A stretch of DNA of 64,000 bases from an uncultured Bacilli bacterium (GTDB lineage Bacteria; Bacillota_I; Bacilli_A; RF39; UBA660): the NCBI GenBank assembly GCA_947626595.1, contig CANQST010000003.1, forward strand, positions 8,396 through 72,395, written 5' to 3'. Made by a program: the position numbers and the translations under genes. The notes beneath the pieces were generated by a model that saw nothing but the letters and a program-made list of their open reading frames with translations, made no database searches and was not told the DNA's origin. Shown in pieces: positions 4,724 to 64,000 of the stretch (within the stretch, counting starts at the first letter, position 1; each line of letters begins with the position of its first letter).

Positions 4724-5332
4724 TTAACTATTTTTAACTAAATTATAAAAAGTATTAGGTTTTAAATTTAGTAGTTTCATAGCTTCACGAGCCGTGATTT
4801 TCTTATTCTTCCATTTATCGACTACTTCATCAAAATTATCAGGTTTATTTATTTTAGGTCTTCCAAAAGGTCTACCTGTTTTAGTTTTGCCTGTTTTTAA
4901 AGCTAAATCGATACCCTCACGCTGACGTGTTTTAATATAAGTCCTTTCTTGTTCAGCAACATAACTTAATATCTGTAATATTAAATCATTAATAAATGTT
5001 CCTAATAAATCTTTCTTTTGTCTAGTATCAAGTAGAGGCATATCTATTACTACAATATCAGCTTTTATATTTTTAGTGATATCTTTCCACTCATTAACTA
5101 TCATTTCATAATTTCTACCTAAACGATCAATACTTTTAATAAATAGAGTATCATTTTCTCTAAGTATATTTTTTAATAATTTATATTGTTCTCTATCGAA
5201 ATCTTTACCGCTTTTCTTATCGATATAAATATCTCTTTCTAATATACCAATATTTTTAAATGCTTCTATTTGTCGTGCTTCATTTTGTGATGTAGAAGAA
5301 ACACGACCATAACCATATTCTCTTTTTTCCAT
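4724..5332 (-). CDS. small serine recombinase (resolvase/invertase family) with a C-terminal HTH
   Basis: N-terminal YGYGRVSSTSQ catalytic-serine motif. Length 202 aa, typical of the Tn3 resolvase/Hin family. C-terminal HTH-like segment. Confidence 0.85.
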   Translation of the reverse strand: MEKREYGYGRVSSTSQNEARQIEAFKNIGILERDIYIDKKSGKDFDREQYKLLKNILRENDTLFIKSIDRLGRNYEMIVNEWKDITKNIKADIVVIDMPLLDTRQKKDLLGTFINDLILQILSYVAEQERTYIKTRQREGIDLALKTGKTKTGRPFGRPKINKPDNFDEVVDKWKNKKITAREAMKLLNLKPNTFYNLVKNS

Positions 5333-5384
5333 AGTTATATTCTCCTTTCACGTTGATTATATAATTGATTATGAAAGTCATCAC

Positions 5385-5520
5385 TATTATATTTGAAAAA
5401 GTATAAAAGGTTTTCAAATATTTAAAAATTAATAACTTGACTTTTCCAAACACAAAAAACACCTAGATTATCCATAAATCTAAGTGTTTGAAAATGTGTA
5501 CTTTTTCAAATACACATTTT
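5385..5520. promoter_or_regulatory. inverted-repeat cluster upstream of the recombinase gene; candidate res/crossover site or operator
   Basis: atttgaaaa-N11-ttttcaaat, aaaatgtgta-N10-tacacatttt and ttttccaaacac...gtgtttgaaaa, all within 140 bp directly 5' of the recombinase start. Confidence 0.3.
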
Positions 5521-7034: not shown

Positions 7035-7368
7035 TAATTAACTCCTTTGTTTTCTGTAAAATTAATGTTATAAAATTATTTGCTTTTTAGATTAGTTAAT
7101 TTTTAATGTTCACATAATATCCTCCGTTTTGTCCTAGTACTTTAATATATAAAAAAATTTAAAAAAATTTTTTAAATTATTATTTATTATTAACTTGGAG
7201 TGGTATAATGATAAAGAAACCACTATTAAAAACATAACAGTTTGTTTTTAGATTAGTCAGCTCCACCATAGTGGTTACCAAACTCGGATTTTTTAAATTA
7301 TTTAATAAGTTCGAGTTTTAATATTTAATAATATATGATAAATGTTTTTAGTAATTAAGGGGAAAAAT

Positions 7369-8472: not shown

Positions 8473-9513
8473 GTGATTAAATTGTATGAATATTTAAATA
8501 ATGTGGCAAAAGAATACCTTACTAAAGAATTGAGAAGAAACTTTTTTAAAAAGTTCGATTTAAAGGATCTATTTAGAAGATGTGAAAAAGAAATGGATAT
8601 TCTTTATGAGAGAGATTTACTTTTTATTGTTGAACACCTATATAAATTTAAAAAAGAAAATAAAAATGTCAAGTATCATTTTAGAGGTACTATAAATAAT
8701 CTACTGCTCTTATATGTGTTAGATATAAGTTATGTTAATCCTTTAGAATATAACTTACCTTATGAGTTATTTAATGATAAAGCTATTAATGTTGATATAA
8801 TTAATGAACCTAGTATTCTTTTTATCAATTATTTAAATAAACAAGCAGACAATTTTAAAGTAGTTCATGGTAATTTTATAAAAGAAGATATAAGAGAAGT
8901 AAATAAATTTTTAGAAAACCATTATTTATTATTACCTTGTGGTTATTTAGATAATAGTATGTTATTAAAGTTTGATGATTTAGATACATTAGAAACTATT
9001 GATGATTATAGAAACTATAAAGATAAATATATGACAATAAAAATAGATGAAAAAGATATAATAAGATGTGATAATGTATGTCTTGATAATGTATTTACTA
9101 ATGATTTTGAAAGAGAAATGTCTAAAATTTTAAAACCTAAAACCATAAATGATTATATAAAAATAAAAAGTATGGCTCATGGTACTGATGTATGGAAAAA
9201 TAACCAAGATAAGTTGTTTAAAGAAAAAAAGATAAATTTAGATAATCTAATTGCAACACGTGAAGATATATTAGAATACCTATTAAATCATAAAATTGAA
9301 AAGAATATAGCATTAGAAATCACAATGTTTATTAGTTTAGGAAAAATGAAAAAAGAACCTAATAAATGGAATGAGTATGTTGAAGTGATGAAAATATATA
9401 ATTGTGAAGATTTGTTTATAGAAATATTTTCAAAAATATTATTTATTTCCAGTAAAGGTCAAGCAGTAAGTGAATGTTTATATGTTTTAGATAATGATAA
9501 TTATTATATATAA
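8473..9513 (+). CDS. miniature DnaE-like protein, copy 2
   Basis: 346 aa. About 90% identical to 1678-2721 over most of its length and divergent at the C-terminus. Same RGTINNLLLLYVLDISYVNPLEYNLPYELF block. Confidence 0.55.
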   Translation: MIKLYEYLNNVAKEYLTKELRRNFFKKFDLKDLFRRCEKEMDILYERDLLFIVEHLYKFKKENKNVKYHFRGTINNLLLLYVLDISYVNPLEYNLPYELFNDKAINVDIINEPSILFINYLNKQADNFKVVHGNFIKEDIREVNKFLENHYLLLPCGYLDNSMLLKFDDLDTLETIDDYRNYKDKYMTIKIDEKDIIRCDNVCLDNVFTNDFEREMSKILKPKTINDYIKIKSMAHGTDVWKNNQDKLFKEKKINLDNLIATREDILEYLLNHKIEKNIALEITMFISLGKMKKEPNKWNEYVEVMKIYNCEDLFIEIFSKILFISSKGQAVSECLYVLDNDNYYI

Positions 9514-10374: not shown

Positions 10375-10391
10375 TATGGGGGGGATATAAA

Positions 10392-11512: not shown

Positions 11513-14500
11513 ATGTTGAAATTAAGTAAAAAATATCTATTAATTCTTTTAGCTGGAGTAGTTTTCCTATTTAGTGGGAAAGTATCTGCTAAAGAAATAA
11601 TTTTACAAACCAATTCTAAAGAAGTGAACGTTGAAGATACTGTCACTTTAAATGTTTCTGTTGATAATGAAGATCAATCTTTATATGCCTTAAAAGCTAA
11701 ATTAAGTTATGATAAAGATGTTTTTGAAGTGCTAGAAGAAAAAGATTTTTCTGAAGAAATAGAAGACATTGTTTATAATGAACAAAATAATGAGTTTGTT
11801 ATTTTAAATAAAAAAGGTTCCAATGACAACTTATTTACAATTAATTTAAAAGTAAAGAAAGATGCTTTAAATGGTAAAACCACTTTAACATTAAGCAATT
11901 TAGAAGTATCAAATGGAACTGATAGCACTAAATATGATAAAAAAAGTGTTACTTTAAATGTTAAAGGTGGTAAAGATGTTACTGCTACAACTACTACCAA
12001 AAATAATAAAACTAAAAATGCTAAAAAGACTTTAAATGTTAAAAAGACACTATTAATTTCTGCTATAGCGCTCCTTATTTTAATGGCTTTAATTGCCTTT
12101 ATTAATTCTGATTACTTTGAAAAACTTAATCTAATAAAAAAAGAAAATAAAAATAAAGTATCTATTGTTATTGCGCTTATTATCATTTTAGCGGACATCA
12201 TTCTAATATCTTTATTAGGTTTTAATGCTGTTAATAAAGGTGATGTAGATAAAGATGGTAAAAAAGATTATAAAGATATACGTAAGATAAGTGAATATTT
12301 ACTTAATGTAACTAATGGTGGTAAAACATCTTCTAGTCTTAAAAATACTTTAAATTATTATAATGCTGACTACAATGGTGATGGTAAAGTTACTTTAGAC
12401 GATGTTGCCGCTCTAACTCAAGATGTAAATAATAAAACAGTTTATGAAGTAGAAGTAGCTAAAAGTTCTATAGAAAATTATTATCCTAGTAAAAACGGTA
12501 ACGTTGAAGTAAATCTATCATTTATTGTTAACCCTAGTGATAATATTTATGTTGAAAGTGTTTTTGCTAACGGCAAATACTATAAAGTAACTAAAGATAA
12601 TGATAATTATTATGCAAGTATAAAAGTTACTGATAAAGCTGGTATTAATGATATCGTTATTTCTAAAGTTAAACTAAGTAATGGTAAAGAAATAAATATT
12701 AAGCCATATACTTTAAAAGTTGATGTCTTAAAAGAAGCTCCTAGTATTAAAAACTTTGATTTTACTAATGAAGGAAAAGTATCTTTTGAACTTGTTGATA
12801 AAGATAATTCATTAGAAAAAGCTACTTTAGTAGTATTAAATAATGACGAAATAGTTACTACTAAAAAGGTAAAGAAAGATTTAAATACTTTCGAATTATC
12901 TTTAGAAAAAGGTATTAATTATACTATAAAAATACTTACTGATTATGACTTAGATAGTTCTAAAGATAATGATAAAAATGCCTTTACTGATAAATTAATT
13001 TATATGAAGCAAGTACAGCTATATGATGTTGGACTAAAACTAAATAGCGTAAGTAACAATTATCCACTTAAAGGAGAAAAAGTAACTGTTTATTTTACTG
13101 CTAGTAGTAATGTTCAAGAAGTACTTATTGATAATAAATACTATACTGTTACTAAGAATAATGATTTATATAGTTTTACTATAGATGCTCCAAATGAAGC
13201 TGGATTATCTAAATATCAAGTGACAGGTGTTATTCTAGATAGTGGTGAGTTTAGAACTAAGATGGACTTTAGTTTTGATGTCTTAAAAGATAAGCCAACT
13301 GTTAAAAATCTTATGTTTGACTACAATAGTCATACAATTACTTTCGATGTAGTTGATAAAGATAAATCTCTAAGTACTTTAAAATTACAAGTTATAAATA
13401 ATGAAACTAAAGAAGAAGCATTTACTAAAGACTTAGATACTGAAAAAAGTACTTTCTCATATAAAGCTGATTTAACTTTAGGCGCAACTTATTCCATTAA
13501 AATTACTGGAAATTATGACTTAGATAGTAAAAAAGGAAATGATAATTTCTATCAAGATTATTCTCTTTATAACCATGTTATTACTATTGATAAAGTTTCT
13601 ATTAAGAGTGTTACTGATTTAGATAATTTATTCCCTAAACAAAATGAAAATATTGAAGTAGCTCTTGATATTGATATCTATCCTACTAAAACAAAAGTTA
13701 CTAAAGTAGTTATTGATGGTAAAGAAACAGATGTTGTATATAAAGATGGTCATTATTATATAACTTTTAATGAAAAAACTTCTGGCATAAAGAAACATAC
13801 TATAAGTTCTATTATTCTTGAAAATAATACTGAAGTACCTACTAACTTTAATATTAAATTAGATGTTTTAAAGGAAAAACCAGCTGTTAAAAACTTTGCT
13901 TATTCAACTGCTAGTAAGACTATAAGTTTTACTTTAGAAGATAAAGATAAATCTATTAAGAATGCTAAGATAGTTGTTACTTCTAAAGAAAATGGTAAAA
14001 AAGTTTTAGAAGAAAAACTAGATTTAGCTAAGTCTTTATTTGAGCTTAAAATAGATTTAACTGAAAGTGCTAAATATGATGTTAATATTATAGCTAACTA
14101 TGATTTAGATAGTGATAGTACTAATAATAAAAATGAAATAGAAGAGAATTTATATACTTATCAATTAACTGTTTATGGAGTTAAATTAACTAGCGTTCAA
14201 GATACTTATTACGCTAAAAAGAATGAAGAAATAGAATTGAAGTTTAAAGCTGAAATTACTCCTGAAGATAATGGTAGTATTATAAGTGCCGTTACTATTG
14301 ATGGTAAAGTTTATGATGTAATTAGAAATATTGAAGGAACTTACAGCGTCTTTATAAAAGCAAAAGATACATCAGGAAATAAGAAATATACTATTACTAG
14401 CGCTACTGTTGGCGAAACTGAATATGCAACTAAACTAGGTTTTAATGTATATGTTTTAAAAGATAAACCTACTATAGAAGATTTATATATAGACGAAAGT

Positions 14501-17500
14501 AAAAGTGTACCAGTAATTACTTTTAACTTAAAAGATAATGACAGTGCTTTAGATAAAGGTTATGCTTATATTAAAGATGGATCAGGTAATGAAGTAGAAA
14601 AATTTACTCTTAAGAAAGGTAAGAATTCTATTGATTTAAAAGATATTGCCACTAACTTAAAAGATGGTGCGACTTACTACTTAGATGTTAAAGTTAATTA
14701 TGACTTAGACGATACTAAGAATAATAAGTATGAAACAGAAGAGTACCTTATAAATAATCATATCGTTAAAATATATAAAGTAAAATTATCTCTAGGAGAA
14801 AATAATCCTTACTACGTTAATAAAGACGAAGAAGTAAATATCAAAATAAATGCTACTGGTAAAGACTTAGATACTGTTAGAGTTAAGACATTTATTATTG
14901 ATAATAAAGAATATGAAGCTATTTATAATAATGGTAGTTACTATGTAAAAGTTAAAACTCCTACTACTTCTGGAATAAAGACATATAACATTACTAAAGT
15001 AGTTTTAACTAATGATATTGAAGTATCTTCAAGTTTAGAAATTAAACTAGATGTTCTAAAAGATACTCCTTATATAAATAAATTTAATCTTAATGAAGAA
15101 AATGGTTTAATTACCTTTGAACTTGTTGATAAAGATAAAGCTTTCCAAAATGGTGATGTATCTATTTCTAATGAAACAGGAAATTTAATTACTAAAGAAG
15201 TAAAAGAAAAGACTACAATTACCTACAAGTTCTTAGAAGATATGAATTATAATATTAAAATTACTGGTAATTATAATCTTGATAGTGATACTACTAATGA
15301 GGAAAATTTATATACTGATGTTGAAATGTTTAGTCATGACTTTCTTATTGGAGGTAATTATCAATTTACTTTAAATGATTTATCTATAACAGACTCTTTA
15401 ACTAAGAGTGAAAAACCTGTTGTATCATTCACAAGTTCTAATATGAAGAATGCTACTATTAAAGAAGTTGTTATTAATGGTAAAAAATATAATGTCTCTA
15501 AAGTAGATGGTAATTATTATGAAGTAATTCTTAATGATGCCCAAATGACATCAGGTAAACATAAAGTTGAATTAGAAAGTGTTACTCTAGATACTATGAA
15601 GACTTTTAAGAATAATTTAGACTTTTCTACTAATAGCTTAACTTATAGTGTTTTAAAAGATGCTCCAAGTATTAAGAATATTAATCTTACTAGTAATAAT
15701 ACTGATAAGACTATAACTGCTACTTTCAATCTAGAAGATAAAGATACTACTTTAACTAGATTAAAAGCCCTACTAGTTGACTCTGCTGATAAGATAATTG
15801 CTGAACAAGAATTAACTCCAGAGATGGTTTACTTATTTGATACTTCTAGTGTTACTTTATCTTACTTAGATAATGCTGATGGACATGTTGATGGTTATTA
15901 CAAAGTTAGATTTTTAGCGGACTACGATTTAGGAGAAGAAAAATATCTTTATAGTGATAAAAATGTTGGTGAAAAAGATATTTTAGTTCAAAAAGATTTA
16001 ATTTATATTAAAGATATTTATATTGCCGATAGTAGAGGTAATAAAATAGATAATTTATATCCAAGTAAAAAACAAAAGAATTATCAAGTTGTAGTAGATG
16101 TATATGTTGATAATAGTATTAATGATTATGCTAGAAGTAAATATGGTAATAGAGCTTATCAAAAAGTCTCTGTTGTAACTATTAATGGTGTTGATTATAG
16201 TGCCGATAAACTAAATGATTATAGGTCTAAAATTACTTTAGATGTCCCTGATACCTCAGGTATTCTTAACTTAACTGTTAATAGAGTTCAACTTGAATAT
16301 GCTGATTACAATGTTAGCTTTAGACAATTCTACTCTGTACCTGAAAAATCTATTAAGATAGATGTTTTAAAAGATACTCCTACTATTAAAAATTTAAGTA
16401 TTAAAGAAGACTATGCTAAAGCAAGCGCAACATTCGATTTTGATGTTGTCTTAGACGAAAAAGCTAAAGAAAAAGACGAAAGTTTCAAAAATGGTAGTAT
16501 TGCTCTAGGTGAACTTCGTCAAAATATAAATAGAGGTCATAATTCTATTACCTTTAATAATATTAAGAAAGACGAAAACTTAGATTTAGTCTTTGAAGGA
16601 AGCTATGATCTTGATACCGATACTTTAGAAACAACAGATCAAAATGAATATGAAAACAAAGAAATCTATAGAGTAAATTATGGTCTATATGATAAAGAAA
16701 CATATGAAGATATCAAAATAACAGATGGTCTATCTCTAAGTAAAAATAATAATAACTATTTTGAAAAGAATGAAGATATCAAATTAAACTTTAATGTAAC
16801 TGGCATCAAAGAAGAATTAGGCTTAGATGTTGAAAAAGTTATTATTAAAGATAAAGAATATCCTATAACTAAAAAAGATAAGTATGAAGTTACTTACGAT
16901 AGTTATAATACTTTTGGTCAAAAAGAAATTACTATTACTGGTGTTGTTCTAAGTAATGGTAAGAAAGTTGACTTAAAGAAACCTTATACTTTTAAACCAG
17001 AAATACTAAAAGATAATATCAGTTTAGATAATTATAAAGTAGAAGTTCAAAATAATAAGATTAAAATTACTTCTAACTTAAAAGATAGTGATAATTCTTT
17101 AATTAAAGCTAATATTAAAATAACTACTGAAAATGGTAAAGAACTAGTAAATAAACCATATGAAGAAGAAATTACTATTGATAAAGTTAAAGATGTTTTA
17201 AGATATTATGTTGAAGTATATGCAAGTTATGATAGAGATATTGATATTACTGAAGGAAGTTCTAACTATTATGAGACTAAATTACTAGAAGAAATAATTT
17301 CCTTTGAAGAAAATGTTATTGAACTTAAAGATATTACTGACATAAATTTATATAAAGCTGAAAAAGATAACTCTATAAATCTTTTAGATACTGTTAACGT
17401 TAATGATTTGGAGAAAAATTTAGATAACTACTTTATTGAAATTAATATGGAAAATGCTCCAAGTGTTCATGCTAATATTAAGAAAATAACTACTAAAGAT

Positions 17501-20500
17501 AATGAATTAATGTTAGTATTAGACTTTGATAATGTATCTAAAGAAAATGTTAAAGGAAAAGAGTTTAGTATCTTCTTTGGTAATATAGAAAATAATAAAG
17601 CTACTAATGAAACACATCCTGATGTTGCATTTAAGACATTATTAAAACGTCTTGAAAGTAATGAGGACATAGTCTTAAAACAAAACTATGATGCTAGTTT
17701 AATATCTGAAGACACTAAGTATTATGTTGATAATTATAGTGGAAAACTAGATGGAAATGGCTTTACTATTAAAAACCTAGAAAAACCATTATTTAATAAA
17801 TTAACTAATGCTAATATTAAGAATTTAATTTTAGAAAATGTTGTTCTAGATAGTAATGGTAGAGGTGCTTTAAGTAATGATGCATCTTCCACAACTGTGG
17901 AAAATGTTATAGTAAATCGTGTTACTAAGAAAAGTGCAAGTAATGGTCAAAATGGTGGTTTAATTGGAAATGTTAATACTCGTAGTACTATCAATTCTTG
18001 TGCCGTAAAAAATATTGACTTTAATATTGGCAATGCTCAACAAAATGGTGGTTTAGTTGGATATGCTGAAAACTCTACTATCAGTAATAGTTACGCTATT
18101 GGTAAAGTAAATGGTGGCTGGAACTTTAATGCTGGTTTTGTAGGTAATACTGCTAATACAACATTTACTAATAACTATTCTAAAGTAAGCGTTACTGGTT
18201 ATACTATCTGTGACTTTGCTTGTAGTTATCTAGGTCAATCAAGTTACCACAATAATATATCTTTAGGAGGTACTAATCGAGGTTTTGTAAATAAGTATAG
18301 TTCTATTTCTAATAACTACTACTTAGTTACTGATGGAAGTATAAGTACTAATAAAGACATTACTAATATCACAGCTGAACAAGTTAATACTAATCTATTT
18401 AAACAAGCTAAGTTTGATAGTAGTATATGGCGTTTAGATAACGTTACTTATGAAAATACTCCATTATTACAAACTGAAAAAATAACTTCTATGGATGAAA
18501 GTATTAATGGTTATGATAGTACTAAGACAATTCTTTATAATAACTTAATGAAATTAATGCCATATTACAGTAATGAAAAAATAATTACTATGGCTAAAAA
18601 CATCAAAGATAATTACTTAAATACTAAAGAAATTATGCATATCTTACCAGTTGATAAAAATGGTAATATTGTAACATACTTAACAAATGATAATGTTAAG
18701 AGAATTAGTAAAATAAAAGTAGTCTATAAAACTAAAGAAAAACAAGAATTTAATGTAACATATGATAATACATATGACTTTGTCGCAACTTATCGTATAG
18801 TTGATTTAAAAATTGATTATAACTACAAAAATTACATAATTGATAGTAATTCTCAAGTTGTAAATAACTTAACTAATTACTTGAAAAAATTAAATTATAC
18901 TGATAATTTAGATATCTTAACTTCTACTGGAGATAGTAGAATATATAGAGATTTCTATAATGAGACAACTGTTAATGAATTAAAAGAGTTTGTTCTATCT
19001 TATCTATCTAATAGTAATTATAATAATATAACTAATAATGATATTATAACTACTCATATTGAAAAAGAAGTAAAAGAAGATAAGAAAATAGAAAAGATAC
19101 TATATATGTATAACTACTTTAGACGTTTCTATGACTTAGATATTGATGGTATTAAGTTATATCAATTTATGCTATTTAATATGGATGGTTTTGATAGTAG
19201 TTTAACTCCAAAAAAGATTGCTAACTTATTCTTAAGTGATGGAACTAACTTCAATACTAATGAAACAAATACTAGATATCAAAAAATCTTTAGCAACTAT
19301 ACTAATCTAAATACTATATCTAAATTCTTAGAGTATATGGTTACTGAATTTAGTGATTTAGATATGGATAAATGGACTGCTTCACAATTTAAAGGATATC
19401 TAGCTGAAGTACCAGTAGATGGACATCCTGAAGTATTATATACTTTATGGGATCACTTTAGTAATGAAGATGCTACATACCATAACCCTTATCAAATATA
19501 TAACTATGTATTACCAATCTTAACTTTACCAAAAGATGCTGCCTACATTATATCTAGTCCTGTTCAATTTATAATAGGTGCCCAAAGGACTTATATAGTT
19601 GATCCAAGCAATGAAGAGGAACAAGCATTATTAAGAAGAAAAGTTAAGAGTTATACTGATAGAATGAGTAATTATTACAATACAGCTTATGGTTTCTTAC
19701 AAGATGCTAAAGTATTTAATGATATTCATACTTACCAATTAGATAAGCGTTATACTAAAGGCGCTAATGGAGAAACTATTTTCCATAACCCATATGTAAC
19801 AGAAGAACCATTCCACAAGAACTTAAATGAAGTAATGAACCAATGGGCATACAATGATTATAATGCCGCAACCGCTAATGGAACTCAGATAATTTGGCGT
19901 GTTGAAGGATTAATGGATGGTAACTTAATCCCTGAACTTGGTAATGTTCAAGAATATACATATCAGACTTGGTCACATGAGTCAGCACATAACGTTGATG
20001 CTAGATTATTCTTACGTAATAATGGTAGAAGATATGATGCTGGTGGAGAAGATTATGCTGATGGTAACTTAACTCAAAGTTTTGGTCAAAATGACATTGT
20101 TATGAACTTATCAGTTAATTATGATGCCGGTAGTAGAGTTGGTGCTAACCTTACATATGATAGAATTGCTTCACCTAGCAAAATTCATGATTTCTATCAA
20201 AAAGTTTTTGATACTATATATATAATGGATTATATAGAAGGAAAAGCTTTCTTAGAATTAAATGATAAAGAAAAATCAGGTGTAGCTGTTCAAGTTATGT
20301 ATCCAAATGAGAATTTAGAAGGAGAAGACAAAACCCATCTTAAATACAAATACACAGTATATCAGCATATAGACGAAGATAAGTATAAAGCTATGAAACT
20401 AAATTCTATTGAGGATCTATACAAAGAAAAATTAGTAATATTCCCTAATGTTTATTACTCAACCTATACTGATAATAGATACGGTGGCGAAGGTATAAAT

Positions 20501-28190: not shown

Positions 28191-30197
28191 ATGAATAGCA
28201 GAAAGCAAAAACTAATTATTATAGGTGCTTTATGTCTAGTTGTAACTTTATTGTCTATAGGTTATGCTGTTTTGTCAGCTAATTTAAGGATTAATGGTAC
28301 TGCTAAAGTATCAGGTGAAAAATGGAGCGTTGAGTTTGTAGAAAAGCAGGCAAAAACTATTCCAAAGGGAAAAGCTACTTGTGATATAGGTACAATTCAA
28401 AATACTTCAGTAACAAACCTATTAGCTAAAGTGAAAGTCCCAGGAGACAGTTGTACATTTACTATACCAGTAGAAAATACTGGAACTTTAGATGCCAGTT
28501 TAGTCGATGTTACTAATAAGGGTTTAGCTTTGTCATATAGTGGTGACCAAGGGGATATAGATATAATAAGTAGTTATATAACTTATGATGTAAGATATGG
28601 TAACACACAAATAAATAATGAAACTAATTTTGATAGTATAGATATACTAGAGCCAGGAGAAAGAGAGACTATAATTTTAAAAGTTGAGTTTAAAGAAGAA
28701 GCAACCCAGATACCAAATGAGGTAGTAACAATAACAGGATTAGATAGAACATTTAATTTTGAAAATAAGGTGGGTTCAAGTAGTACTAATCCAACACCAA
28801 ATACAACTCCAGTTTATCATGATGCCAGTGGAGCTAATCAACCAGTGTTAAATGGAGACATGATACCTGTAGTTTATGACGAAACAAGAAAAGAATGGGT
28901 AAAACAGGATTTAGATAAAAGTTATGACTATTCACAACAAGTATGGGCAAATGCTGTAACTGTAGTTGAAGATGGAACACAAACAAGAAGTTATTATAAG
29001 AAAGCCAAAGCCGGAACTGTTATATCAATGAGTGATATAAATACAATGTGGGTATGGATACCAAGATATTCATATACAATAAAGAGTGAAGATGGTGGAG
29101 AAAACTATTTTGGTAAAGCAAGTTCTGATAATGAAAGCCCAACTAAAGCATTACCAGGAGAAATAGATGTTAAGTTTATTTCAACAAGTCAAAATGACAG
29201 TGATGGTTCAGCAAAATATACAGAAAGTCAACCAAGCAACTGGAGAACGAATGATGCCTTTACTTTTGGAGACAAAATATTATCAGGTATATGGGTAGCT
29301 AAGTTTGAAACTACAGGTAGTTTATCTGAAGACCAACAGGCTTGTATTGATTTGAATTGTGATATAAGTAAAATAACGATAAAGCCAAATGTTTCTTCAG
29401 TAAGAAATCAAAGGATAAGCAGTTTCTTCTATATGGCAAGAAGTATGCAGAAAGAAAATAATCCATATGGTTTTAATAGTGAAAGCGGAGACTTGCATAT
29501 GTCAAAAAATAATGAATGGGGAGCAGTTGCATATTTAAGTCAAAGCAAATATGGTAAGTATGGTAATGGAGATTATAGTGGAGCAAATAAAGAAGTTTAT
29601 ATGAATAATAGTAGTGACTATATAACTGGAAACAGTAGTGGTACACCTGATGCTACTGAAATTAAGGGCGTTCTTCATGAATATAATGATATGAATAGCT
29701 TTTCAGGTGTTGGTGCAAGTACTACTGGAACAATATATGGAATATATGATATGAGTGGAGGATCAACTGAATATGTAATGGGAGGATTTGAGTATGATGC
29801 TCAAGGAAGTAATGAACATGCTGGACAAATATCTGTAGCTTCTTCGGGATTTAAAGGTTTAAGTGCTACTATACCACCTGCTGAAACTGGAACAATAAGT
29901 ATGCCAGAAAAGAAATATTACAATGTCTATAAAACAGCCACACCAACTTCTAGCATATGGTCTACAGCAAAGCCTGAACTTGCATGTAATTCAAACATTT
30001 GCTATGGACATGCTTTGTCGGAAACAGCTGAATGGTATGGAGACTACGCTTTGTTTGGTATACGATCATATCCATGGTTTAGACGTGGAGGAACGTACAA
30101 TAGTAGTCCAGTTGGTGGCTTGTTTCTAGCACATCCATATAGTGGAAATTATAATGAAACAATTTCAACTCGTTTAGTTCTAACACCTAACAATTAA
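28191..30197 (+). CDS. paralog B: signal-anchored secreted protein, TasA/camelysin-like N-terminal domain and FGE-sulfatase (SUMF1-like) C-terminal domain
   Basis: N-terminus LSANLRINGTAKVSGEKW...PGDSCTFTIPVENTGTLDASLVDV (cf. SipW-cognate/TasA leaders). C-terminus has NNEWGAVAYLSQSKYG (cf. FGE LPTEAEWEYAARGG), GIYDMSGGSTEYVMG (cf. GLYDMSGNVWEW) and a terminal RLVL. Start placed at the ATG at 28191 after the GGTAGGTGA SD. Confidence 0.85.
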   Translation: MNSRKQKLIIIGALCLVVTLLSIGYAVLSANLRINGTAKVSGEKWSVEFVEKQAKTIPKGKATCDIGTIQNTSVTNLLAKVKVPGDSCTFTIPVENTGTLDASLVDVTNKGLALSYSGDQGDIDIISSYITYDVRYGNTQINNETNFDSIDILEPGERETIILKVEFKEEATQIPNEVVTITGLDRTFNFENKVGSSSTNPTPNTTPVYHDASGANQPVLNGDMIPVVYDETRKEWVKQDLDKSYDYSQQVWANAVTVVEDGTQTRSYYKKAKAGTVISMSDINTMWVWIPRYSYTIKSEDGGENYFGKASSDNESPTKALPGEIDVKFISTSQNDSDGSAKYTESQPSNWRTNDAFTFGDKILSGIWVAKFETTGSLSEDQQACIDLNCDISKITIKPNVSSVRNQRISSFFYMARSMQKENNPYGFNSESGDLHMSKNNEWGAVAYLSQSKYGKYGNGDYSGANKEVYMNNSSDYITGNSSGTPDATEIKGVLHEYNDMNSFSGVGASTTGTIYGIYDMSGGSTEYVMGGFEYDAQGSNEHAGQISVASSGFKGLSATIPPAETGTISMPEKKYYNVYKTATPTSSIWSTAKPELACNSNICYGHALSETAEWYGDYALFGIRSYPWFRRGGTYNSSPVGGLFLAHPYSGNYNETISTRLVLTPNN

Positions 30198-46959: not shown

Positions 46960-47184
46960 TTACTTTATTATTGATTTGGGATAAGCTGTTCTCTCATCAG
47001 TCCTATATAGTAAATAATCTATACTTGTATTGTAGTAATCAGCTAATTTCTTTAAAAGTTCTGTTGGAATATCTCTATCTTCTTTTTCATATTTAGAATA
47101 ACAAGTCTGTGTTACATTAATTATCTTAGCTAAATCTTTTTGTAATAAATCATTATCTTCTCTTATTTCTCTTAATCTATTCAT
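46960..47184 (-). CDS. XRE-family HTH transcriptional regulator
   Basis: LLQKDLAKIINVTQTCYSKYE HTH_3 pattern. Divergent from the gene at 47302. Confidence 0.8.
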   Translation of the reverse strand: MNRLREIREDNDLLQKDLAKIINVTQTCYSKYEKEDRDIPTELLKKLADYYNTSIDYLLYRTDERTAYPKSIIK

Positions 47185-47301
47185 GATTTCCTCCCCATAT
47201 AATTTTATAATATTCCATTTTGTACTATTGACACATAAGCCATTTTGTCTTATAATTTTATTATATAATCCATATTGGATTATAAGGAACGAGGTAAGAT
47301 A

Positions 47302-47904
47302 ATGAAGAGGATTAAAAAATATATAGTAATAAGTATAATAATAGGAGTATTTTTATTTCTAACTTTTTCTTTCTGTCTGGCAGAAACTTTAATACAAAGT
47401 AAAAATGTATCTTATACCGATACTAAAAATTTAGCAGCCGACAATGTCCAAGATGCCATAGATGGAACTTGTGATAAAATGAATAGTAAGTTAACCCAAG
47501 TAGATAATAAACTGCTGGAAGTAGATAAGAAAATTCTTGATATAGAAGATAAAATGTATACAGCTAAAAAAATAAGTGAAACTAATAGTGTAACTACCGC
47601 TACTGAATGGTTTTATACAGGGATATCTATTACATTCCCAGCTAATTCTTACTGTGCCATAAGTATGGGTAACGGTTGGGCAAATAATAAGCCAGTTGGT
47701 TTAAGACTTACCGCCACTAAAGAAAGTTCAAGTACTGGTGTTCCCGCTCATGGTTTTGTTTATGGTGATGGAAATATTTATCTTACACATAGTGATTATT
47801 TTGAAACAGAAACTACATATTATGTATGGGTTAAGTATGAAACAACCGGTTTGCATGATGTGATTAGCTATTCAGGTTTCTGCGCTACTAAATATAAACA
47901 ATAA
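47302..47904 (+). CDS. secreted protein whose N-terminal leader is shared with the FGE-like family (C/D/E) but whose C-terminal domain differs
   Basis: ETLIQSKNVSYTDTKNLAADNVQDAIDGTCDKMNS compared with VIESKSVLYNRTISGGSSDNVQGSIDELYKMSG of C/D/E. Start placed at MKRIKKY; the ORF track begins at 47275. Confidence 0.6.
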   Translation: MKRIKKYIVISIIIGVFLFLTFSFCLAETLIQSKNVSYTDTKNLAADNVQDAIDGTCDKMNSKLTQVDNKLLEVDKKILDIEDKMYTAKKISETNSVTTATEWFYTGISITFPANSYCAISMGNGWANNKPVGLRLTATKESSSTGVPAHGFVYGDGNIYLTHSDYFETETTYYVWVKYETTGLHDVISYSGFCATKYKQ

Positions 47905-58961: not shown

Positions 58962-59315
58962 TTATTTTTGTATATAACTTTTATTTATCTTAATAAAGTT
59001 AATAATCTTATTTAATTCTTTATCAGTTAATTCTTCTTCTTTATTCATATAACCATTTTTTACTAATAATTTCTTTAGTACTTCTTTTTCTTTTAAATTA
59101 TCTTCAATAACTTTAAGCTTTTTTTCATTACCCAATAAGTAATCAATAGATACTTGAAAAAAATTAGCTATCTTAATTAACATTTCATAATCCGGTGTAG
59201 TTCTATTTATTTCCCAACCACTTATAGTTTGCATTGTAACACCTAACTCAGCTGCTAACTCTTTTTGATACATATTCTTCTTTTCTCTTAGTTCTTTTAA
59301 TCTATTTCCAAACAT
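58962..59315 (-). CDS. XRE/SinR-like HTH regulator with a C-terminal extension; divergent from paralog C
   Basis: QKELAAELGVTMQTISGWE HTH_3. The C-terminal about 50 aa are conserved with the regulator at 60947. Confidence 0.8.
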   Translation of the reverse strand: MFGNRLKELREKKNMYQKELAAELGVTMQTISGWEINRTTPDYEMLIKIANFFQVSIDYLLGNEKKLKVIEDNLKEKEVLKKLLVKNGYMNKEEELTDKELNKIINFIKINKSYIQK

Positions 59316-59451
59316 AATAGACCACCATCCTTTTACTCGCTATATTACAACAATTTAATAAATGCAACAATTCATTATAAATAAATTACATTTTTTTATT
59401 TACTAACTCTACAATATGTTGTATACTTAAATAGTAAAGATGGTGACATTA

Positions 59452-60900
59452 ATGAAAAAATATGTAATTGGTTTTATTATTGGAATATTATTAACAGGAA
59501 CTATAACTTACGCAGTAGGTTCAGTAATAGAAAGTAAAAGTGTTTTATATAATAGAACTATAAGTGGAGGAAGTTCAGATAATGTACAAGGATCAATAGA
59601 CGAGTTATATAAAATGAGTGGAGTAAGTACAACTCCATATAAGGAAGAAATTTTAAACGGAGCGGACCCAGTATTGGGTGATGGAATGATACCAGTAACT
59701 TTAGATAAAAAAGGAAAAGTAAAGTATGCAAATCTAAATACACAGTGGTATTGTTATGAAGAAAAGAAATGGGCCAATGCAGTAATACTTAAACAAAGTC
59801 CAAGCAAAAGTTATAAAACAGGAGATATAATCTCAGAAGACGATATTGAGAGTTATTTTGTATGGGTTCCAAGATTTAAATATAAAGTATGGAACACATC
59901 AAGTGCTGATGGTTACCAGCAAAATTTAGCTAATACGCAAAATTCAGCAAATTCTATTTGGCATATTACTGGTTCAGCACGATTAATAGATGTAGAATTT
60001 GAAGATAAGAGTGCAACGGCTTCAAGTGGTACTTACTTGACCCATCCTGCATTTACTACCTTTGGAGTAAGTGGTTTGTGGTTTGCTAAGTTTGAAACGA
60101 GTGGAACCACAGGCGCAATAACAGTAAAACCAAATGTTACTTCTTTAAGAGGTACAACAGTTGGTGATTTTTGGCATGCCTTCTATAATTATAGAAATGT
60201 TAATGGTGAACATAATCCTAATTTAGATCCACATATGATAAAAAATACTGAATGGGGTGCAGCTGCATACTTATCTCATTCAGCATATGGAATAGGAACT
60301 GAAATAAATATAAATAATAATCAAAATTATTTGACAGGTTATTCAGCTGCGGCAAATACAGACCAAAGTTCTTATACTGGAACATATGGAACTAAAACAG
60401 TTACCGATAATGATGGACCAGCAGTGACAAAACCCTATAATACACCAATTGGCTATTTAGCATCAACAACAGGAAATATCACAGGAATATATGATATGTC
60501 AGGTGGAGCACATGAGTATGTTGCTGGTTACTTAGATCCTTATGGTGTTACTAGTAGTGGTGGCGTTGCAAGTGGTTTGAAAGTTACTGATTTAGCTAAA
60601 GAACAATACTTTGATAAATATTCAGGAGCTACAACTGGGTCGTCTTACAGTAAAAGAATTTTAGGAGATGCAACAGGCGAACTCGGCCCTTTCTATTACT
60701 ACATGGAGAAGAATGGCTCTAATTATTCTCACAATGGTTGGTACGCTGATGGTTCGGACTTTGTAGAGCCCAGGTACTCGTGGTTCGGCCGAGGCGGTCC
60801 ATACGATGATGGCGTCTTGGCAGGTCAGTTTCACTTCCATAGGTTTACCGGAGAGGCCTTTGGTTATCTTGGTTCACGTTTGGTTTTAGCAGTCAAGTAA
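59452..60900 (+). CDS. paralog C: signal-anchored FGE-sulfatase-like domain protein
   Basis: MKKYVIGFIIGILLTG TM anchor. NTEWGAAAYLSHSAYG, GIYDMSGGAHEYVAGY and a terminal GSRLVLAVK. GGTGA SD before the ATG at 59452. Confidence 0.85.
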   Translation: MKKYVIGFIIGILLTGTITYAVGSVIESKSVLYNRTISGGSSDNVQGSIDELYKMSGVSTTPYKEEILNGADPVLGDGMIPVTLDKKGKVKYANLNTQWYCYEEKKWANAVILKQSPSKSYKTGDIISEDDIESYFVWVPRFKYKVWNTSSADGYQQNLANTQNSANSIWHITGSARLIDVEFEDKSATASSGTYLTHPAFTTFGVSGLWFAKFETSGTTGAITVKPNVTSLRGTTVGDFWHAFYNYRNVNGEHNPNLDPHMIKNTEWGAAAYLSHSAYGIGTEININNNQNYLTGYSAAANTDQSSYTGTYGTKTVTDNDGPAVTKPYNTPIGYLASTTGNITGIYDMSGGAHEYVAGYLDPYGVTSSGGVASGLKVTDLAKEQYFDKYSGATTGSSYSKRILGDATGELGPFYYYMEKNGSNYSHNGWYADGSDFVEPRYSWFGRGGPYDDGVLAGQFHFHRFTGEAFGYLGSRLVLAVK

Positions 60901-60946
60901 TAATAGTATTAAATAAAGCCTAGAGGACTTGCTTGTTCTCTAGGCT

Positions 60947-61333
60947 TTATCTATTTTTCATAATATATTTTCTATTATTCTTAATAAAATCCATTATGCT
61001 TTTTAACTCCTCATTTGATAAATTTTCTTCTTTGCTCATATAACCATTTTCTACTAATGTATCTTTTAACACTTGCTTTATATTTAATTGCTTTTCATTC
61101 TTATTTGATTTAGTCTCTCTACCAAGTAGAAAGTCAGTAGAAACATTTAAAAAGTCAGCAATCCTAACAAGCGTTTCAAAATCAGGCCTTGTTATATTTT
61201 GACACCATCTATTAACTGCTTGTTGAGTTAAATTTAAATGTTTTGCTAATTCGATTTGTTTAATCTCACCACTATCAAGTGCAAATTTTAATCGTTCACT
61301 AAACATTACAATCACCTCTAACTTGCTTAACAT
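60947..61333 (-). CDS. XRE/SinR-like HTH regulator; divergent from paralog D
   Basis: QIELAKHLNLTQQAVNRWC HTH. C-terminal domain homologous to 58962-59315. Confidence 0.8.
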   Translation of the reverse strand: MLSKLEVIVMFSERLKFALDSGEIKQIELAKHLNLTQQAVNRWCQNITRPDFETLVRIADFLNVSTDFLLGRETKSNKNEKQLNIKQVLKDTLVENGYMSKEENLSNEELKSIMDFIKNNRKYIMKNR

Positions 61334-61389
61334 TATACAACTATTTGTTTATATTCTTTATAAAGTTAATCTAAAATGTTATTTTAAAA

Positions 61390-61418
61390 TTGACATAAAC
61401 AGTTTGTTGTTTTATAAT
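61390..61418 (+). promoter_or_regulatory. consensus sigma-A promoter TTGACA-17-TATAAT facing paralog D
   Basis: ttgacataaacagtttgttgttttataat. The -35 region is homologous to the promoter at 63109. Confidence 0.55.
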
Positions 61419-61580
61419 TAAATTATAAAATAAAAAAGATAATCAAGCGTAAGATGGTAAATAGAACTTGATTATCTAACTATTTTCCAAAAAGAAATTG
61501 TAAATATTTTTACATAGTTTTCTTTTTGGAATAAAACTATTTTATAATAAATAGCTAAAAAAGTAAAGTTGGTGATACTA

Positions 61581-63050
61581 ATGAAAAAATATATAATTGG
61601 TTTTATTATTGGAATATTATTAACAGGAACTATAACTTACGCAGTAGGTTCAGTAATAGAAAGTAAAAGTGTTTTATATAATAGAACTATAAGTGGAGGA
61701 AGTTCAGATAATGTACAAGGATCAATAGACGAGTTATATAAAATGAGTGGAGTAAGTACTATTCCATATAAGGAAGAAATTTTAAATGGAGCAGACCCAG
61801 TATTGGGTGATGGAATGATACCAGTAAGTTTAGATAAAAAAGGAAAAGTAAAATATGCAAATTTAAACACAGAATGGTATTGTTATGAAGAAAAGAAATG
61901 GGCCAATGCAGTAATACTTAAGAGTAATCCAAGCAAAAGTTATAAAACAGGAGATATAATATCAGAAGACGATATTGAGAGTTATTTTGTATGGGTTCCA
62001 AGATTTAAATACAAACTCTGGAACTTAGCTACTGAAGATGGTTATCTAGATTTAAGTCAATCAGAAAATCTTAGTGTTGAAACAGTTAGAGAAACATATG
62101 GAAAAGCAAAATTGATAGATATAGTGTTTGAGGATAAAGATATACAGCCATCAACTACTGAAAAAGTTGACTTATATTATACCCATCCAGCCTTTACCAC
62201 TTTTGGAGTAAGTGGTTTATGGATAGGAAAATTCGAAATAGGTGGAGATGCAAGTAATGCAGTAGTAAAACCAAATATGTCGTCTTGGAGAAATGCTAGT
62301 GTTGGAATATTTTGGAAAAACCTATATAATTATAAAAACAATGGTGGCTCTCATAATACTAATTTAGATCCTCATATGATAAAGAATACAGAGTGGAGAG
62401 CAGTTGCATATTTATCTCATTCAGCATATGGAATAGGAAAGGAAATAAATATAAATAATAGTCAAAGTCATTTAACTGGATATTCAGCGGCTGCAAATAC
62501 AGATCAAAGTTCTTATGAGGGAACTTATGGAACTAAAGAAGTTAATGATAATGATGGACCAGCTGTAACACAACCATATAATACCTCAACTGGTTATCTA
62601 GCATCAACAACAGGAAACATAACAGGAATATATGATATGTCAGGTGGCGCAATTGAATATGTTTCAGGTTATCTTGACCTTTATGGTGTTAAAAGTGGTG
62701 GAGGTGTTGCAAGCGGACTAACTCAAGAAGAACTAGATAACTATTCTAAATATTTTGATAAATATTTAGGTGATAAAGATACACAATTGTCTTCTTATAG
62801 TAAAAGAATACTTGGTGATGCAATAGGAGAAATGGGTCCTTTCTACTATTATAAAGATAAAGATGGATATGTTCGTAGTCACAATGGTTGGTACGCTGAT
62901 AGTTCGTCATTTGTAAATTCCACCTATCCATGGTTTATTCGAAGTGGTAATTATAACTATGGTATTTTGGTAGGTCAGTTTAATTTCGATAGAGATACTG
63001 GAGGTGCACTTAGCTATATTAGTTCCCGCTTAGTTCTTGCAGTAAAATAA
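61581..63050 (+). CDS. paralog D: signal-anchored FGE-sulfatase-like domain protein
   Basis: About 75% identical to paralog C at the N-terminus and over the FGE motifs (NTEWRAVAYLSHSAYG, GIYDMSGGAIEYVSGY). Confidence 0.85.
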   Translation: MKKYIIGFIIGILLTGTITYAVGSVIESKSVLYNRTISGGSSDNVQGSIDELYKMSGVSTIPYKEEILNGADPVLGDGMIPVSLDKKGKVKYANLNTEWYCYEEKKWANAVILKSNPSKSYKTGDIISEDDIESYFVWVPRFKYKLWNLATEDGYLDLSQSENLSVETVRETYGKAKLIDIVFEDKDIQPSTTEKVDLYYTHPAFTTFGVSGLWIGKFEIGGDASNAVVKPNMSSWRNASVGIFWKNLYNYKNNGGSHNTNLDPHMIKNTEWRAVAYLSHSAYGIGKEININNSQSHLTGYSAAANTDQSSYEGTYGTKEVNDNDGPAVTQPYNTSTGYLASTTGNITGIYDMSGGAIEYVSGYLDLYGVKSGGGVASGLTQEELDNYSKYFDKYLGDKDTQLSSYSKRILGDAIGEMGPFYYYKDKDGYVRSHNGWYADSSSFVNSTYPWFIRSGNYNYGILVGQFNFDRDTGGALSYISSRLVLAVK

Positions 63051-63108
63051 AACAATAAATTTTGATATATTTGTGCATAAAAAGTTGAAAAACTTTTTTT
63101 CTTTCCAC

Positions 63109-63139
63109 TTGACATAACCCTAGGGGGGGGGGGTATACT
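63109..63139 (+). promoter_or_regulatory. promoter TTGACA-(19 nt containing G11)-TATACT upstream of paralog E; candidate phase-variable promoter
   Basis: cttgacataaccctagggggggggggtatact. The G11 homopolymer at 63123-63133 sits in the spacer. The spacer is 19 nt as assembled and would be 17 nt with two fewer G. Confidence 0.55.
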
Positions 63140-63174
63140 ATACTTATAAAAAAATAAAAAGCTGTGGAAAGAAA

Positions 63175-64000
63175 GTGAAAAGAATAGTGAAGAAATCAAA
63201 AATAGATAGAAAACTATTATTAGGAATTATTCTAGGAATAATGATTTCTACTGTTTTAACATGCACTTTTGTTTATGCAGTAGGTTCAGTAATAGAAAGT
63301 AAAAGTGTTTTGTATAATAGAACTATAAGTGGAGGTAGTTCAGATAATGTACAAGGTTCAATAGACGAACTATATAAAATGAGTGGAGTAAGTACAACTC
63401 TATATAAAGAAGAAATTTTAAACGGAGCAGACCCAGTATTAGGAAAAGACATGATACCAGTAACCTTAGATGGAGATGGAACAGTTAAGTATGCTAATTT
63501 AAATACACCTTGGTATAAATATGCAGAGAAAAGATGGGCCAATGCAGTAATTTTAGTAGGCAATCCAAGTAAAAACTATAAAACAGGAGATATTATTTTA
63601 GAAAAGGATATAGAAAGTTATTTTGTTTGGGTTCCAAGATTTAAATATAAAATATGGGACTTAGGAAATTATACATCTGCTTATTCTTTATCACAATTAA
63701 AAGATAATGCAGATAAAACAGAAACTAATTTGGATGCGTTTAGACATATTACTAGTAATGCAAGAATAATAGATATAGTATTTGAAAATAAAAACACTAC
63801 TCCATCGACTACAGTAGCATTAAATTCGTATTATACCCATCCAGCTTTTATAGCTTTTGATGTGAATGGTTTATGGATTGGAAAATTTGAAACAGGTTAT
63901 AATCAAGGAATTGTTGGTAAGCCAATAGAAGACACTTTAAGCTGGACACCTCAAAGTGCTCAGCAAAATATCATTTCTAGTGATCATATTATAGTGAAGC
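63175..64000 (+). CDS. paralog E of the FGE-like family (3'-truncated by the window end; GTG start)
   Basis: The frame reads VKRIVKKSKIDRKLLLGIILGIMISTVLTCTFVYAVGSVIESKSVLYNRTISGGSSDNVQGSIDELYKMSGV..., colinear with C and D. Open to base 64000. Confidence 0.75.
   Translation, partial: MKRIVKKSKIDRKLLLGIILGIMISTVLTCTFVYAVGSVIESKSVLYNRTISGGSSDNVQGSIDELYKMSGVSTTLYKEEILNGADPVLGKDMIPVTLDGDGTVKYANLNTPWYKYAEKRWANAVILVGNPSKNYKTGDIILEKDIESYFVWVPRFKYKIWDLGNYTSAYSLSQLKDNADKTETNLDAFRHITSNARIIDIVFENKNTTPSTTVALNSYYTHPAFIAFDVNGLWIGKFETGYNQGIVGKPIEDTLSWTPQSAQQNIISSDHIIVK

Follow-up and report, generated by a model that had tools for sequence, protein, structure and literature searches.

A tandem array of exported lectin-fold paralogs with a poly-G promoter spacer: a putative contingency gene family in an uncultured gut Bacilli bacterium

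A stretch of 64,000 nucleotides (nt) from an uncultured Bacilli bacterium of the RF39 lineage (contig CANQST010000003.1; this whole stretch is referred to below as the window) contains, near its end, three consecutive paralogous genes, protC, protD and protE, whose products are predicted to be exported (Table 1). The window is AT-rich, with a GC content of about 28%. The array is chromosomal and its host has peptidoglycan genes, because the housekeeping genes ftsY, ffh and rpoZ flank the array and FemAB, MurD and enolase are encoded further upstream. Both protC and protD are preceded by a divergently transcribed gene for a small repressor of the XRE/phage-CI type (regC and regD, respectively). 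The original prediction, which had been made from the letters of the window, described three identical modules of such a regulator and an exported protein. This is correct for C and D, whereas no regulator accompanies protE and no open reading frame (ORF) was found in the 125 bp before it. The tandem array as predicted was thus confirmed in part: three paralogs are real, with regulators at only two of them.

The promoter of protD is a perfect TTGACA-17-TATAAT with the normal spacer that had been expected, and the T7 tract of the C region and the run of eleven guanines (G11) of the E region are also present as described. The G11 run lies exactly between TTGACA and TATACT and forms, together with TAACCCTA, the whole 19-nt spacer of the protE promoter. 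On the other hand, the three promoters had been regarded as homologous, which does not hold, since the similarity between C and D begins only about 26 nt before the ATG and D and E have only TTGACATAA.C in common. A paralog at a different locus (L003) has a promoter cassette that matches the one of protE with 92.5% identity over 590 nt. Within the 64 kb, G11 is the only run of G or C longer than 7, and the number of such runs expected by chance from the base composition of the window is about 1e-4.

A scan of species-representative genomes yielded 80 related loci (612 kb, about 100 family genes), all of them from metagenome-assembled genomes (MAGs) of uncultured gut Bacilli (rabbit, human and mouse; one labelled Tenericutes), and many of these contigs end at family genes. 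The lengths of G runs in the 612 kb show a bimodal distribution (G4, 446; G5, 49; G6, 8; G7, 2; G8, 22; G9, 2; G10, 6; G11, 3), with 33 runs of G8–G11, or 34 when the window's own is counted, and no C run longer than 5 was found on the gene strand. All but two of the long runs are flanked by -35-like (TTGACA-like) and -10-like (TATAAT-like) hexamers with spacers of 15–21 nt. More than half of the 34 runs (19) are directly upstream of a family gene, most of the remaining ones are upstream of a small ORF, the first of an operon that also contains a family gene, and some precede genes for other secreted proteins beside these. Conversely, among the 84 family genes with enough upstream sequence, a run of at least six G was detected within 260 nt in 18 and within 1.5 kb in 26. 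The spacer length was found to follow the type of cassette, being 15–16 nt for G8, 17 nt for a G9 copy and 18–20 nt for G10–G11. A poly-G artefact of two-colour sequencing or assembly was considered and rejected, as the runs are internal, have conserved hexamer flanks, follow gene orientation and recur across independent projects; an artefact of read ends is excluded because the deposited contigs lie in both orientations.

Not all G runs are of this kind. G9 and G10 runs at two related loci (L027, 183–191; L042, 5419–5428) have no clear -35 and -10 elements and are followed by ...ACCTCTCTTTTT, a context that recurs with G6 in L054; these runs represent an element of a different kind from the promoter cassettes. 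In the window itself, a G7 run at 10378–10384, located 8 nt upstream of an ATG, resembles a ribosome-binding site rather than a promoter element.

Variation in run length was examined in consensus assemblies, from which all lengths given here were read. A contig from another sample (L001) is 99.88% identical to the window over 11.75 kb, and the two differ in nothing but the run (G10 versus G11) and two short patches of protC that match other paralogs. These patches (59676–59697 and 59793–59805) match paralogs E and D and reflect either gene conversion between paralogs or assembly chimerism. Another contig (L002) is 100% identical to the window and ends inside the G run. The L003 locus comes from the same sample as L002 and probably belongs to the same genome as the window; its cassette (upstream hairpin, promoter, G11 and 5' end of the gene) drives a mosaic paralog that is first E-like, then D-like and then C-like along its length. 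Among homologous cassettes, G6 versus G8 and G6 versus G9 (each within single MAGs), G6 versus G10 and G10 versus G11 were found.

Two metagenome scans were also performed. The first, in which the promoter cassette of the window was sought with a gap of variable length, gave 0 matches. The second used one human-gut cassette, of which 73 copies were obtained. Short-read assemblies gave a few copies in which identical flanks enclose G7 or G9, and about ten runs are broken by a substitution. G6 occurs in six copies, five of them from one project (VOFC01); the latter were discounted, as A runs nearby are also altered in these contigs, which is typical of long-read homopolymer error. None of the genes downstream of the human-gut cassette is a family member. 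They encode other secreted proteins with a TasA-like N-terminus, which indicates that this cassette is not specific to the family and serves a wider secretome.

Besides G runs, dinucleotide repeats were found in the same family. In a family gene 75% identical to protC (L092), the region coding for the signal peptide contains an (AT)9 repeat that puts the gene out of frame, and a stop is reached in the assembled version; with (AT)8 or (AT)11 the gene would be in frame again. The window contains an (AT)11 repeat in a short leader ORF (MNKLKNRRNIYIYIYIAVEKITGFGSLVY...) upstream of paralog A, which is homologous to the (AT)9-bearing 5' end of the L092 gene, and it is a candidate translational phase switch or the remnant of one. 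Upstream of the (AT)n leader, the window (25828–25990) and L092 (9715–9884) share a conserved non-coding region of about 170 nt, which has two GC-containing hairpins, CTGGCTCTCTAGCCAG and AGCTAGCAGTTAGCTAGCT, and no Rfam match. Moreover, a promoter spacer in L016 consists of a (TA)11 repeat (7067–7088), which comes immediately after a TTGAC -35-like element and lies downstream of an array of three family genes.

The products of protC, protD and protE have a common layout, in which an N-terminal hydrophobic leader is followed by a conserved leader module, a variable patch and a CLec (C-type-lectin) domain of the formylglycine-generating-enzyme (FGE) type. In the last 45 or so residues, fixed scaffold positions are interleaved with hypervariable ones, as in the ligand-binding face of the variable proteins of diversity-generating retroelements (DGRs). 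Between C and D, the identity is 92–98% in the first ~160 amino acids (aa), 32–60% in the middle patch, 88% in the lectin core and 58–71% at the C-terminus, which departs from the 70–80% previously estimated for the leader and FGE motifs.

Neither C nor D gave an above-threshold match in Pfam or NCBIfam, and the FGE-sulfatase model (PF03781) matched neither of them even at E<=10. Full-length protE scored 22.4 bits against this model, below the cut-off of 23.3, and a few homologs carry a precomputed PF03781 annotation. The catalytic cysteine pair of FGE is absent: C and D have one Cys each (residue 101, not in the lectin domain), and protE has Cys30 and Cys503. The CLec fold is predicted by an AlphaFold2 model of protC (predicted local distance difference test 79, predicted template modelling score 0.82), whose best match in the PDB by Foldseek is TaqVP (5vf4; E 5e-5, probability 1.0), followed by Mtd of a Bordetella phage (0.03). 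This fold is backed by a 47-member family profile, which matches TaqVP of Thermus aquaticus by sequence (E 4.7e-5) and PvdO weakly. Within the C-type-lectin fold, TaqVP and Mtd are both of the FGE subtype (PMC6328139). The earlier label of FGE-like is therefore appropriate at the level of the fold but not at that of function, given the absent cysteines. The family proteins are most likely surface or secreted binding proteins rather than formylglycine-generating enzymes, and their specificity would reside in the hypervariable C-terminal face.

This family is very large: more than 7,700 matches were obtained among 90%-identity clusters, and clustering at 50% left 3,477 representatives, 663 of them below 1e-30. 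A core of about 420 residues is joined to diverse N-termini, sometimes in multi-copy giant proteins; the N-terminal parts of some relatives are prepilin-type N_methyl, Peptidase_M73 (TasA-like; PF12389, as at the N-terminus of the L022 member), Ig-like or ALK glycine-rich. Family copies are numerous per genome, and tandem arrays reach five.

The explanation that we favor, with a probability of roughly 0.6, is that the region is a contingency gene family, in which slipped-strand promoter switching and mosaic paralogs are combined in a tandem array of three exported paralogs. In this model, protC and protD would be transcribed from separate sigma-70-type promoters, and the divergently encoded CI-type XRE repressor of each would probably bind to the intergenic region that it shares with its exported-protein gene; protE, like many genes of the relatives, would be controlled through the G run within the spacer between -35 and -10. 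Slipped-strand mispairing at replication would alter the length of the run and hence that of the spacer, which would be 19 nt with G11, 18 nt with G10 and the optimal 17 nt with G9, and protE would probably be weakly expressed or off at G11 or G10. Transcription of protE and similar genes may in this way be switched or tuned stochastically and reversibly. Together with the swapping of segments between paralogs by mosaic gene conversion, the outcome would be a group of contingency loci through which the displayed binding specificities vary. A contingency family of paralogous exported proteins had already been proposed in the original prediction, and this part of it is supported, with the G11 spacer as the key, by G10 in the near-identical contig and by the recurrence of the architecture in relatives.

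Several points weigh against such a switch. In consensus assemblies, an assembler error in the homopolymer could account for the difference between G10 and G11. In the human-gut cassette, which is the best-sampled one, G8 is present in 51 of the 73 copies (70%) and run-length changes are not clearly commoner than other differences between copies, and the run may therefore be constrained for a direct function. The assignment of hexamers is ambiguous in some cassettes, with spacers of 15 or 21 nt. In addition, surface exposure is suggested by the leader only, and no anchoring motif was seen in the proteins. G8 is clearly the preferred state and the variation is modest, which is compatible with a switch under majority-state selection and also with a directly functional G8 element.

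The latter possibility, which was kept as the main rival but appears rather unlikely, is that the G run is a fixed promoter element of a regulon of secreted-protein genes and not a mutational switch, either as the site for a dedicated regulator or sigma factor or as a rigid spacer that sets promoter strength. The predominance of G8 in the human-gut cassette is in line with such an element, as are the strikingly uniform G8 where one MAG has several paralogous promoters (five in Lapin-016 bin44 and four in CAKOKD), the unrelated secreted proteins driven by the same cassette, and the position of the run, which always abuts the TAT of the downstream hexamer. However, a fixed element does not readily account for lengths from G6 to G11 among clearly homologous cassettes or for a run that differs between otherwise identical 11.7-kb sequences. 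It would also have to accommodate G10–G11 copies with spacers of 18–20 nt, which are poor for sigma-70-type promoters, and the (AT)n and (TA)n repeats at equivalent positions in the same family; moreover, no candidate factor that binds G runs was identified.

A quite unlikely alternative is the model of the original prediction, in which each paralog is under its own divergent XRE/SinR-like repressor and this pairing defines the family. It was correctly noted that the regulators share a conserved C-terminal domain beyond the helix-turn-helix (HTH): aligned from end to end, with the C-terminal stretch included, regC and regD show 48% identity, and the full-length architecture is common to about 30 clusters, in which the C-terminal region is conserved. 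Their assignment as SinR-like could not be maintained, since Pfam gave only HTH families and Phage_CI_repr and no SinI-type domain. On Phage_CI_repr, regC scored 34.2 bits (cut-off 22) and regD 18.1 bits, which is below the cut-off, and regC also has a sub-threshold match to NCBIfam RstR. Both were classified as phage CI-type repressors. Homologs with 63% and 54% identity occupy the CI position of prophage lysogeny modules, where they are divergent from a cro-like HTH gene and adjoin Abi or TIR genes with an integrase near, and a 71%-identical homolog from a rabbit-gut MAG has no family gene adjoining. The window copies resemble these phage CI/RstR-type repressors in that regC passes the Phage_CI_repr cut-off and full-length homologs of both are found at prophage CI positions, and differ from them in that their neighbors are chromosomal genes for surface proteins and that integrase, cro and other phage genes are lacking in the vicinity.

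The divergent XRE genes at two of the three copies favor control by individual repressors, and so does a third small XRE regulator, found by tblastn and phmmer, which is divergent from a gene for a 209-aa exported protein sharing the leader module. The promoter of the latter gene, at 47.2 kb, is again TTGACA-17-TATAAT, with a palindrome over its -10 that resembles the one over the -10 of the protD promoter. Local repression of protC and protD by the divergent regulators is thus a natural guess from the arrangement of the genes. Nevertheless, protE has no regulator, the closest full-length homologs of the regulators are repressors in the CI position of prophages, and a divergent related small HTH gene upstream of a family gene was detected in only two of the 80 related loci (L006 and L029), at a distance of 600–700 nt; the pairing is therefore local to this genome and not a trait of the family. 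The parallel with sinR-tapA/tasA was also rejected on domain tests, because, in addition to the missing SinI-type domain, paralogs A and B, which had been thought to contain TasA-like domains, have only a sub-threshold DUF11 match and no Peptidase_M73. No ORF beyond those listed was found between or beside the modules, no search aimed at a SipW-type signal peptidase having been made.

The resemblance to DGR variable proteins raises the question of retro-mutagenesis. A family member from a Hadza gut MAG (L055), a 755-aa protein with a prepilin-type N-terminus and an Ig-like domain, is followed 150 nt past its stop by a 150-nt repeat of the 3' end of the gene (template, 5366–5515; variable region, 5060–5209). 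Of the 20 mismatches between the two, 17 are at template adenines, and the repeat is, as judged from this pattern, a genuine DGR template repeat. Its 6.5-kb neighborhood contains neither Avd nor a reverse transcriptase. When 101 family genes were compared, the non-synonymous changes in their last 50 codons were found to cluster at the codons that read AAY in the L055 template, and the scaffold codons vary almost only at third positions. In the window, on the other hand, no non-coding copy of any family 3' end resembling a template repeat was found. Pfam scans of its larger ORFs revealed no reverse transcriptase (RVT), with housekeeping-type ORFs, such as those beside tuf, not included in the scans. 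Moreover, independent assemblies have the same C-termini for C and D, and only one of about 100 family genes in the related loci has a nearby template repeat. On these grounds, the window copies were considered to have a DGR-type binding domain without evidence of active retro-mutagenesis. That the paralogs are active targets of a DGR elsewhere in the genome, with adenine mutagenesis of the C-terminal region as the main source of variation, is therefore improbable, even though the CLec fold, the scaffold/variable pattern, the L055 template and a C-terminal coding region that is adenine-poor in protC and AAY-rich in protD would all fit it.

Table 1. Features of the array and of other parts of the window (positions in the 64,000-nt stretch)
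Feature	Position	Strand	Description
regC	58962–59315	-	117-aa XRE/phage-CI-type repressor; HTH and ~50-aa C-terminal domain; Pfam HTH_3 4e-19
C intergenic region	59316–59451	+	Weak promoter candidates, TTTACT-17-TATACT at 59399–59427; putative role
T7 run, C intergenic region	59392–59398	+	
Small palindrome, C intergenic region			TACAA-TATG-TTGTA
protC	59452–60900	+	482 aa, predicted to be exported; identical to P0001
Hairpin between protC and regD	60913–60950		16-bp stem; likely bidirectional terminator
regD	60947–61306	-	119-aa XRE/CI-type repressor
protD promoter	61390–61418	+	Perfect TTGACA-17-TATAAT
Near-perfect 35-bp palindrome	61403–61437		Core TTATAATT-a-AATTATAA; overlaps protD -10; candidate operator
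protD leader hairpins	61437–61531	+	Two, strong, within ~160-nt leader
protD	61581–63050	+	489 aa, paralog of protC; identical to P0003
protE promoter	63109–63139	+	TTGACA 63109–63114; 19-nt spacer; TATACT 63134–63139
G11 run	63123–63133		In protE spacer
protE	63175–64000	+	GTG start; 275 of 524 codons in window, cut by window end; full length 524 aa (P0010)
Third small XRE regulator	46960–47184	-	74 aa; HTH_3 5e-14; divergent from exported-protein gene
209-aa exported protein	47275–47904	+	Leader module SK.V.Y...DNVQ..ID is the only part in common with the family
(AT)11 repeat	26019–26040	+	Inside short leader ORF 25994–26194, upstream of paralog A
Paralog A	26191–28158	+	In-frame stop 27211–27213; ~30% identical to C and D
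Paralog B	28173–30197	+	674 aa, intact; ~30% identical to C and D

Some other features of the window were also examined. The leader of protD is strongly folded (minimum free energy -32.1 kcal/mol, z = -4.6; 0 of 200 shuffled sequences reached this stability), and its second hairpin is followed by a U-rich stretch, such that the leader could be an attenuator or a protein-binding site. A scan of the whole window against Rfam at gathering thresholds gave no match, indicating that this structured leader is not a described RNA family. The sequence of protD is identical across three assemblies. The in-frame stop divides paralog A into ORFs of 340 and 290 aa in the same frame and represents either a pseudogene or a sequence error. 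Two paralogous ORFs of about 347 aa (1678–2721 and 8473–9513), about 6.8 kb apart, contain partial DNA_pol3_alpha NTPase and finger domains, which suggests that a block at the start of the window is duplicated. Between them and the array, a 3178-aa ORF (11513–21049) has weak GLUG and dockerin-like matches only and probably encodes a giant surface protein.

Several known systems are comparable with the array. Poly-G promoters have been reported for the tpr genes and tp0126 of Treponema pallidum and for porA of Neisseria meningitidis, and in porA and tp0126 the run is located between -35 and -10 (PMC7864442). Like tprE/G/J, tprL, tp0126 and porA, the genes described here are paralogous surface-protein genes with about 8–11 G in the promoter, several paralogs have a run of their own, and the length of the run sets that of the spacer. 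Unlike them, the present genes belong to an AT-rich, uncultured Gram-positive-type gut commensal and not to a pathogen, and they encode CLec-fold proteins and not porins. Their run is a cassette feature across many genes, species and several secreted-protein families, and its switching is a proposal. DGR variable proteins (TaqVP, Mtd and TvpA) provide the best structural and profile matches and the same C-terminal scaffold/variable pattern, and one family member is a real DGR target; here, however, diversity is held as many paralogs and mosaics instead of being made by retro-mutagenesis.

In the variable surface lipoproteins of Mycoplasma, such as vlp of M. hyorhinis, a poly-A run is located in the promoter spacer. 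The likeness lies in a multigene surface family of a low-GC, Bacilli-related lineage with one homopolymer promoter per gene, and the differences are the use of G instead of A runs, another fold, the lack of a lipobox and the presence of peptidoglycan genes (FemAB, MurD). The poly-G contingency loci of Campylobacter jejuni have their runs mostly inside coding regions and are switched at the level of translation. In the AT-rich genome of this organism, G8–G13 runs constitute a class apart and are a mark of surface-structure genes; long G runs likewise form a distinct class here, but they lie in promoter spacers and not in coding regions.

The proposed mechanism is thus of a known kind, in a new lineage and protein family. 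Literature searches that combined RF39 or MAGs with phase variation or homopolymeric promoters returned nothing relevant, and in the literature searched no description was found of the lineage in this connection, of a DGR-type CLec family without a DGR, or of such a cassette-like spread of G-run promoters. The large protein family identified, with about 3,500 clusters at 50% identity, has no Pfam or NCBIfam model. Its loci are probably under-represented in MAGs, because G runs and repeated 5' ends break assemblies, as exemplified by L002.

A broader and more tentative idea, which we consider possible but would not yet favor, is that, in uncultured gut Bacilli, much of the secreted-protein repertoire is expressed from a dedicated promoter class in which a G8–G11 run in the spacer is obligatory, which would place stochastic switches across the genome and give surface variation in three tiers. 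If true, this repertoire would include the family of DGR-type lectin proteins, with its thousands of members, together with TasA-like proteins and others that are secreted (in rabbit, mouse and human MAGs), and the switches, independent of one another, would come on top of mosaicism among paralogs, frame switching by (AT)n and, occasionally, DGR mutagenesis. The fold of DGR variable proteins would then be linked to a second route to diversity, through many paralogs and stochastic expression. Phase-variable surface families are known mainly from pathogens, and the switches known in gut commensals are mostly invertible promoters; the present loci would then stand beside the surface-variation systems of Mycoplasma, Treponema or Campylobacter, in a bacterium that is abundant in the gut microbiota and uncharacterised. 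This idea is directly testable from existing metagenomic reads, and it may provide a handle on how widespread uncultured gut bacteria with reduced genomes vary their surface towards host immunity, phages and glycans.

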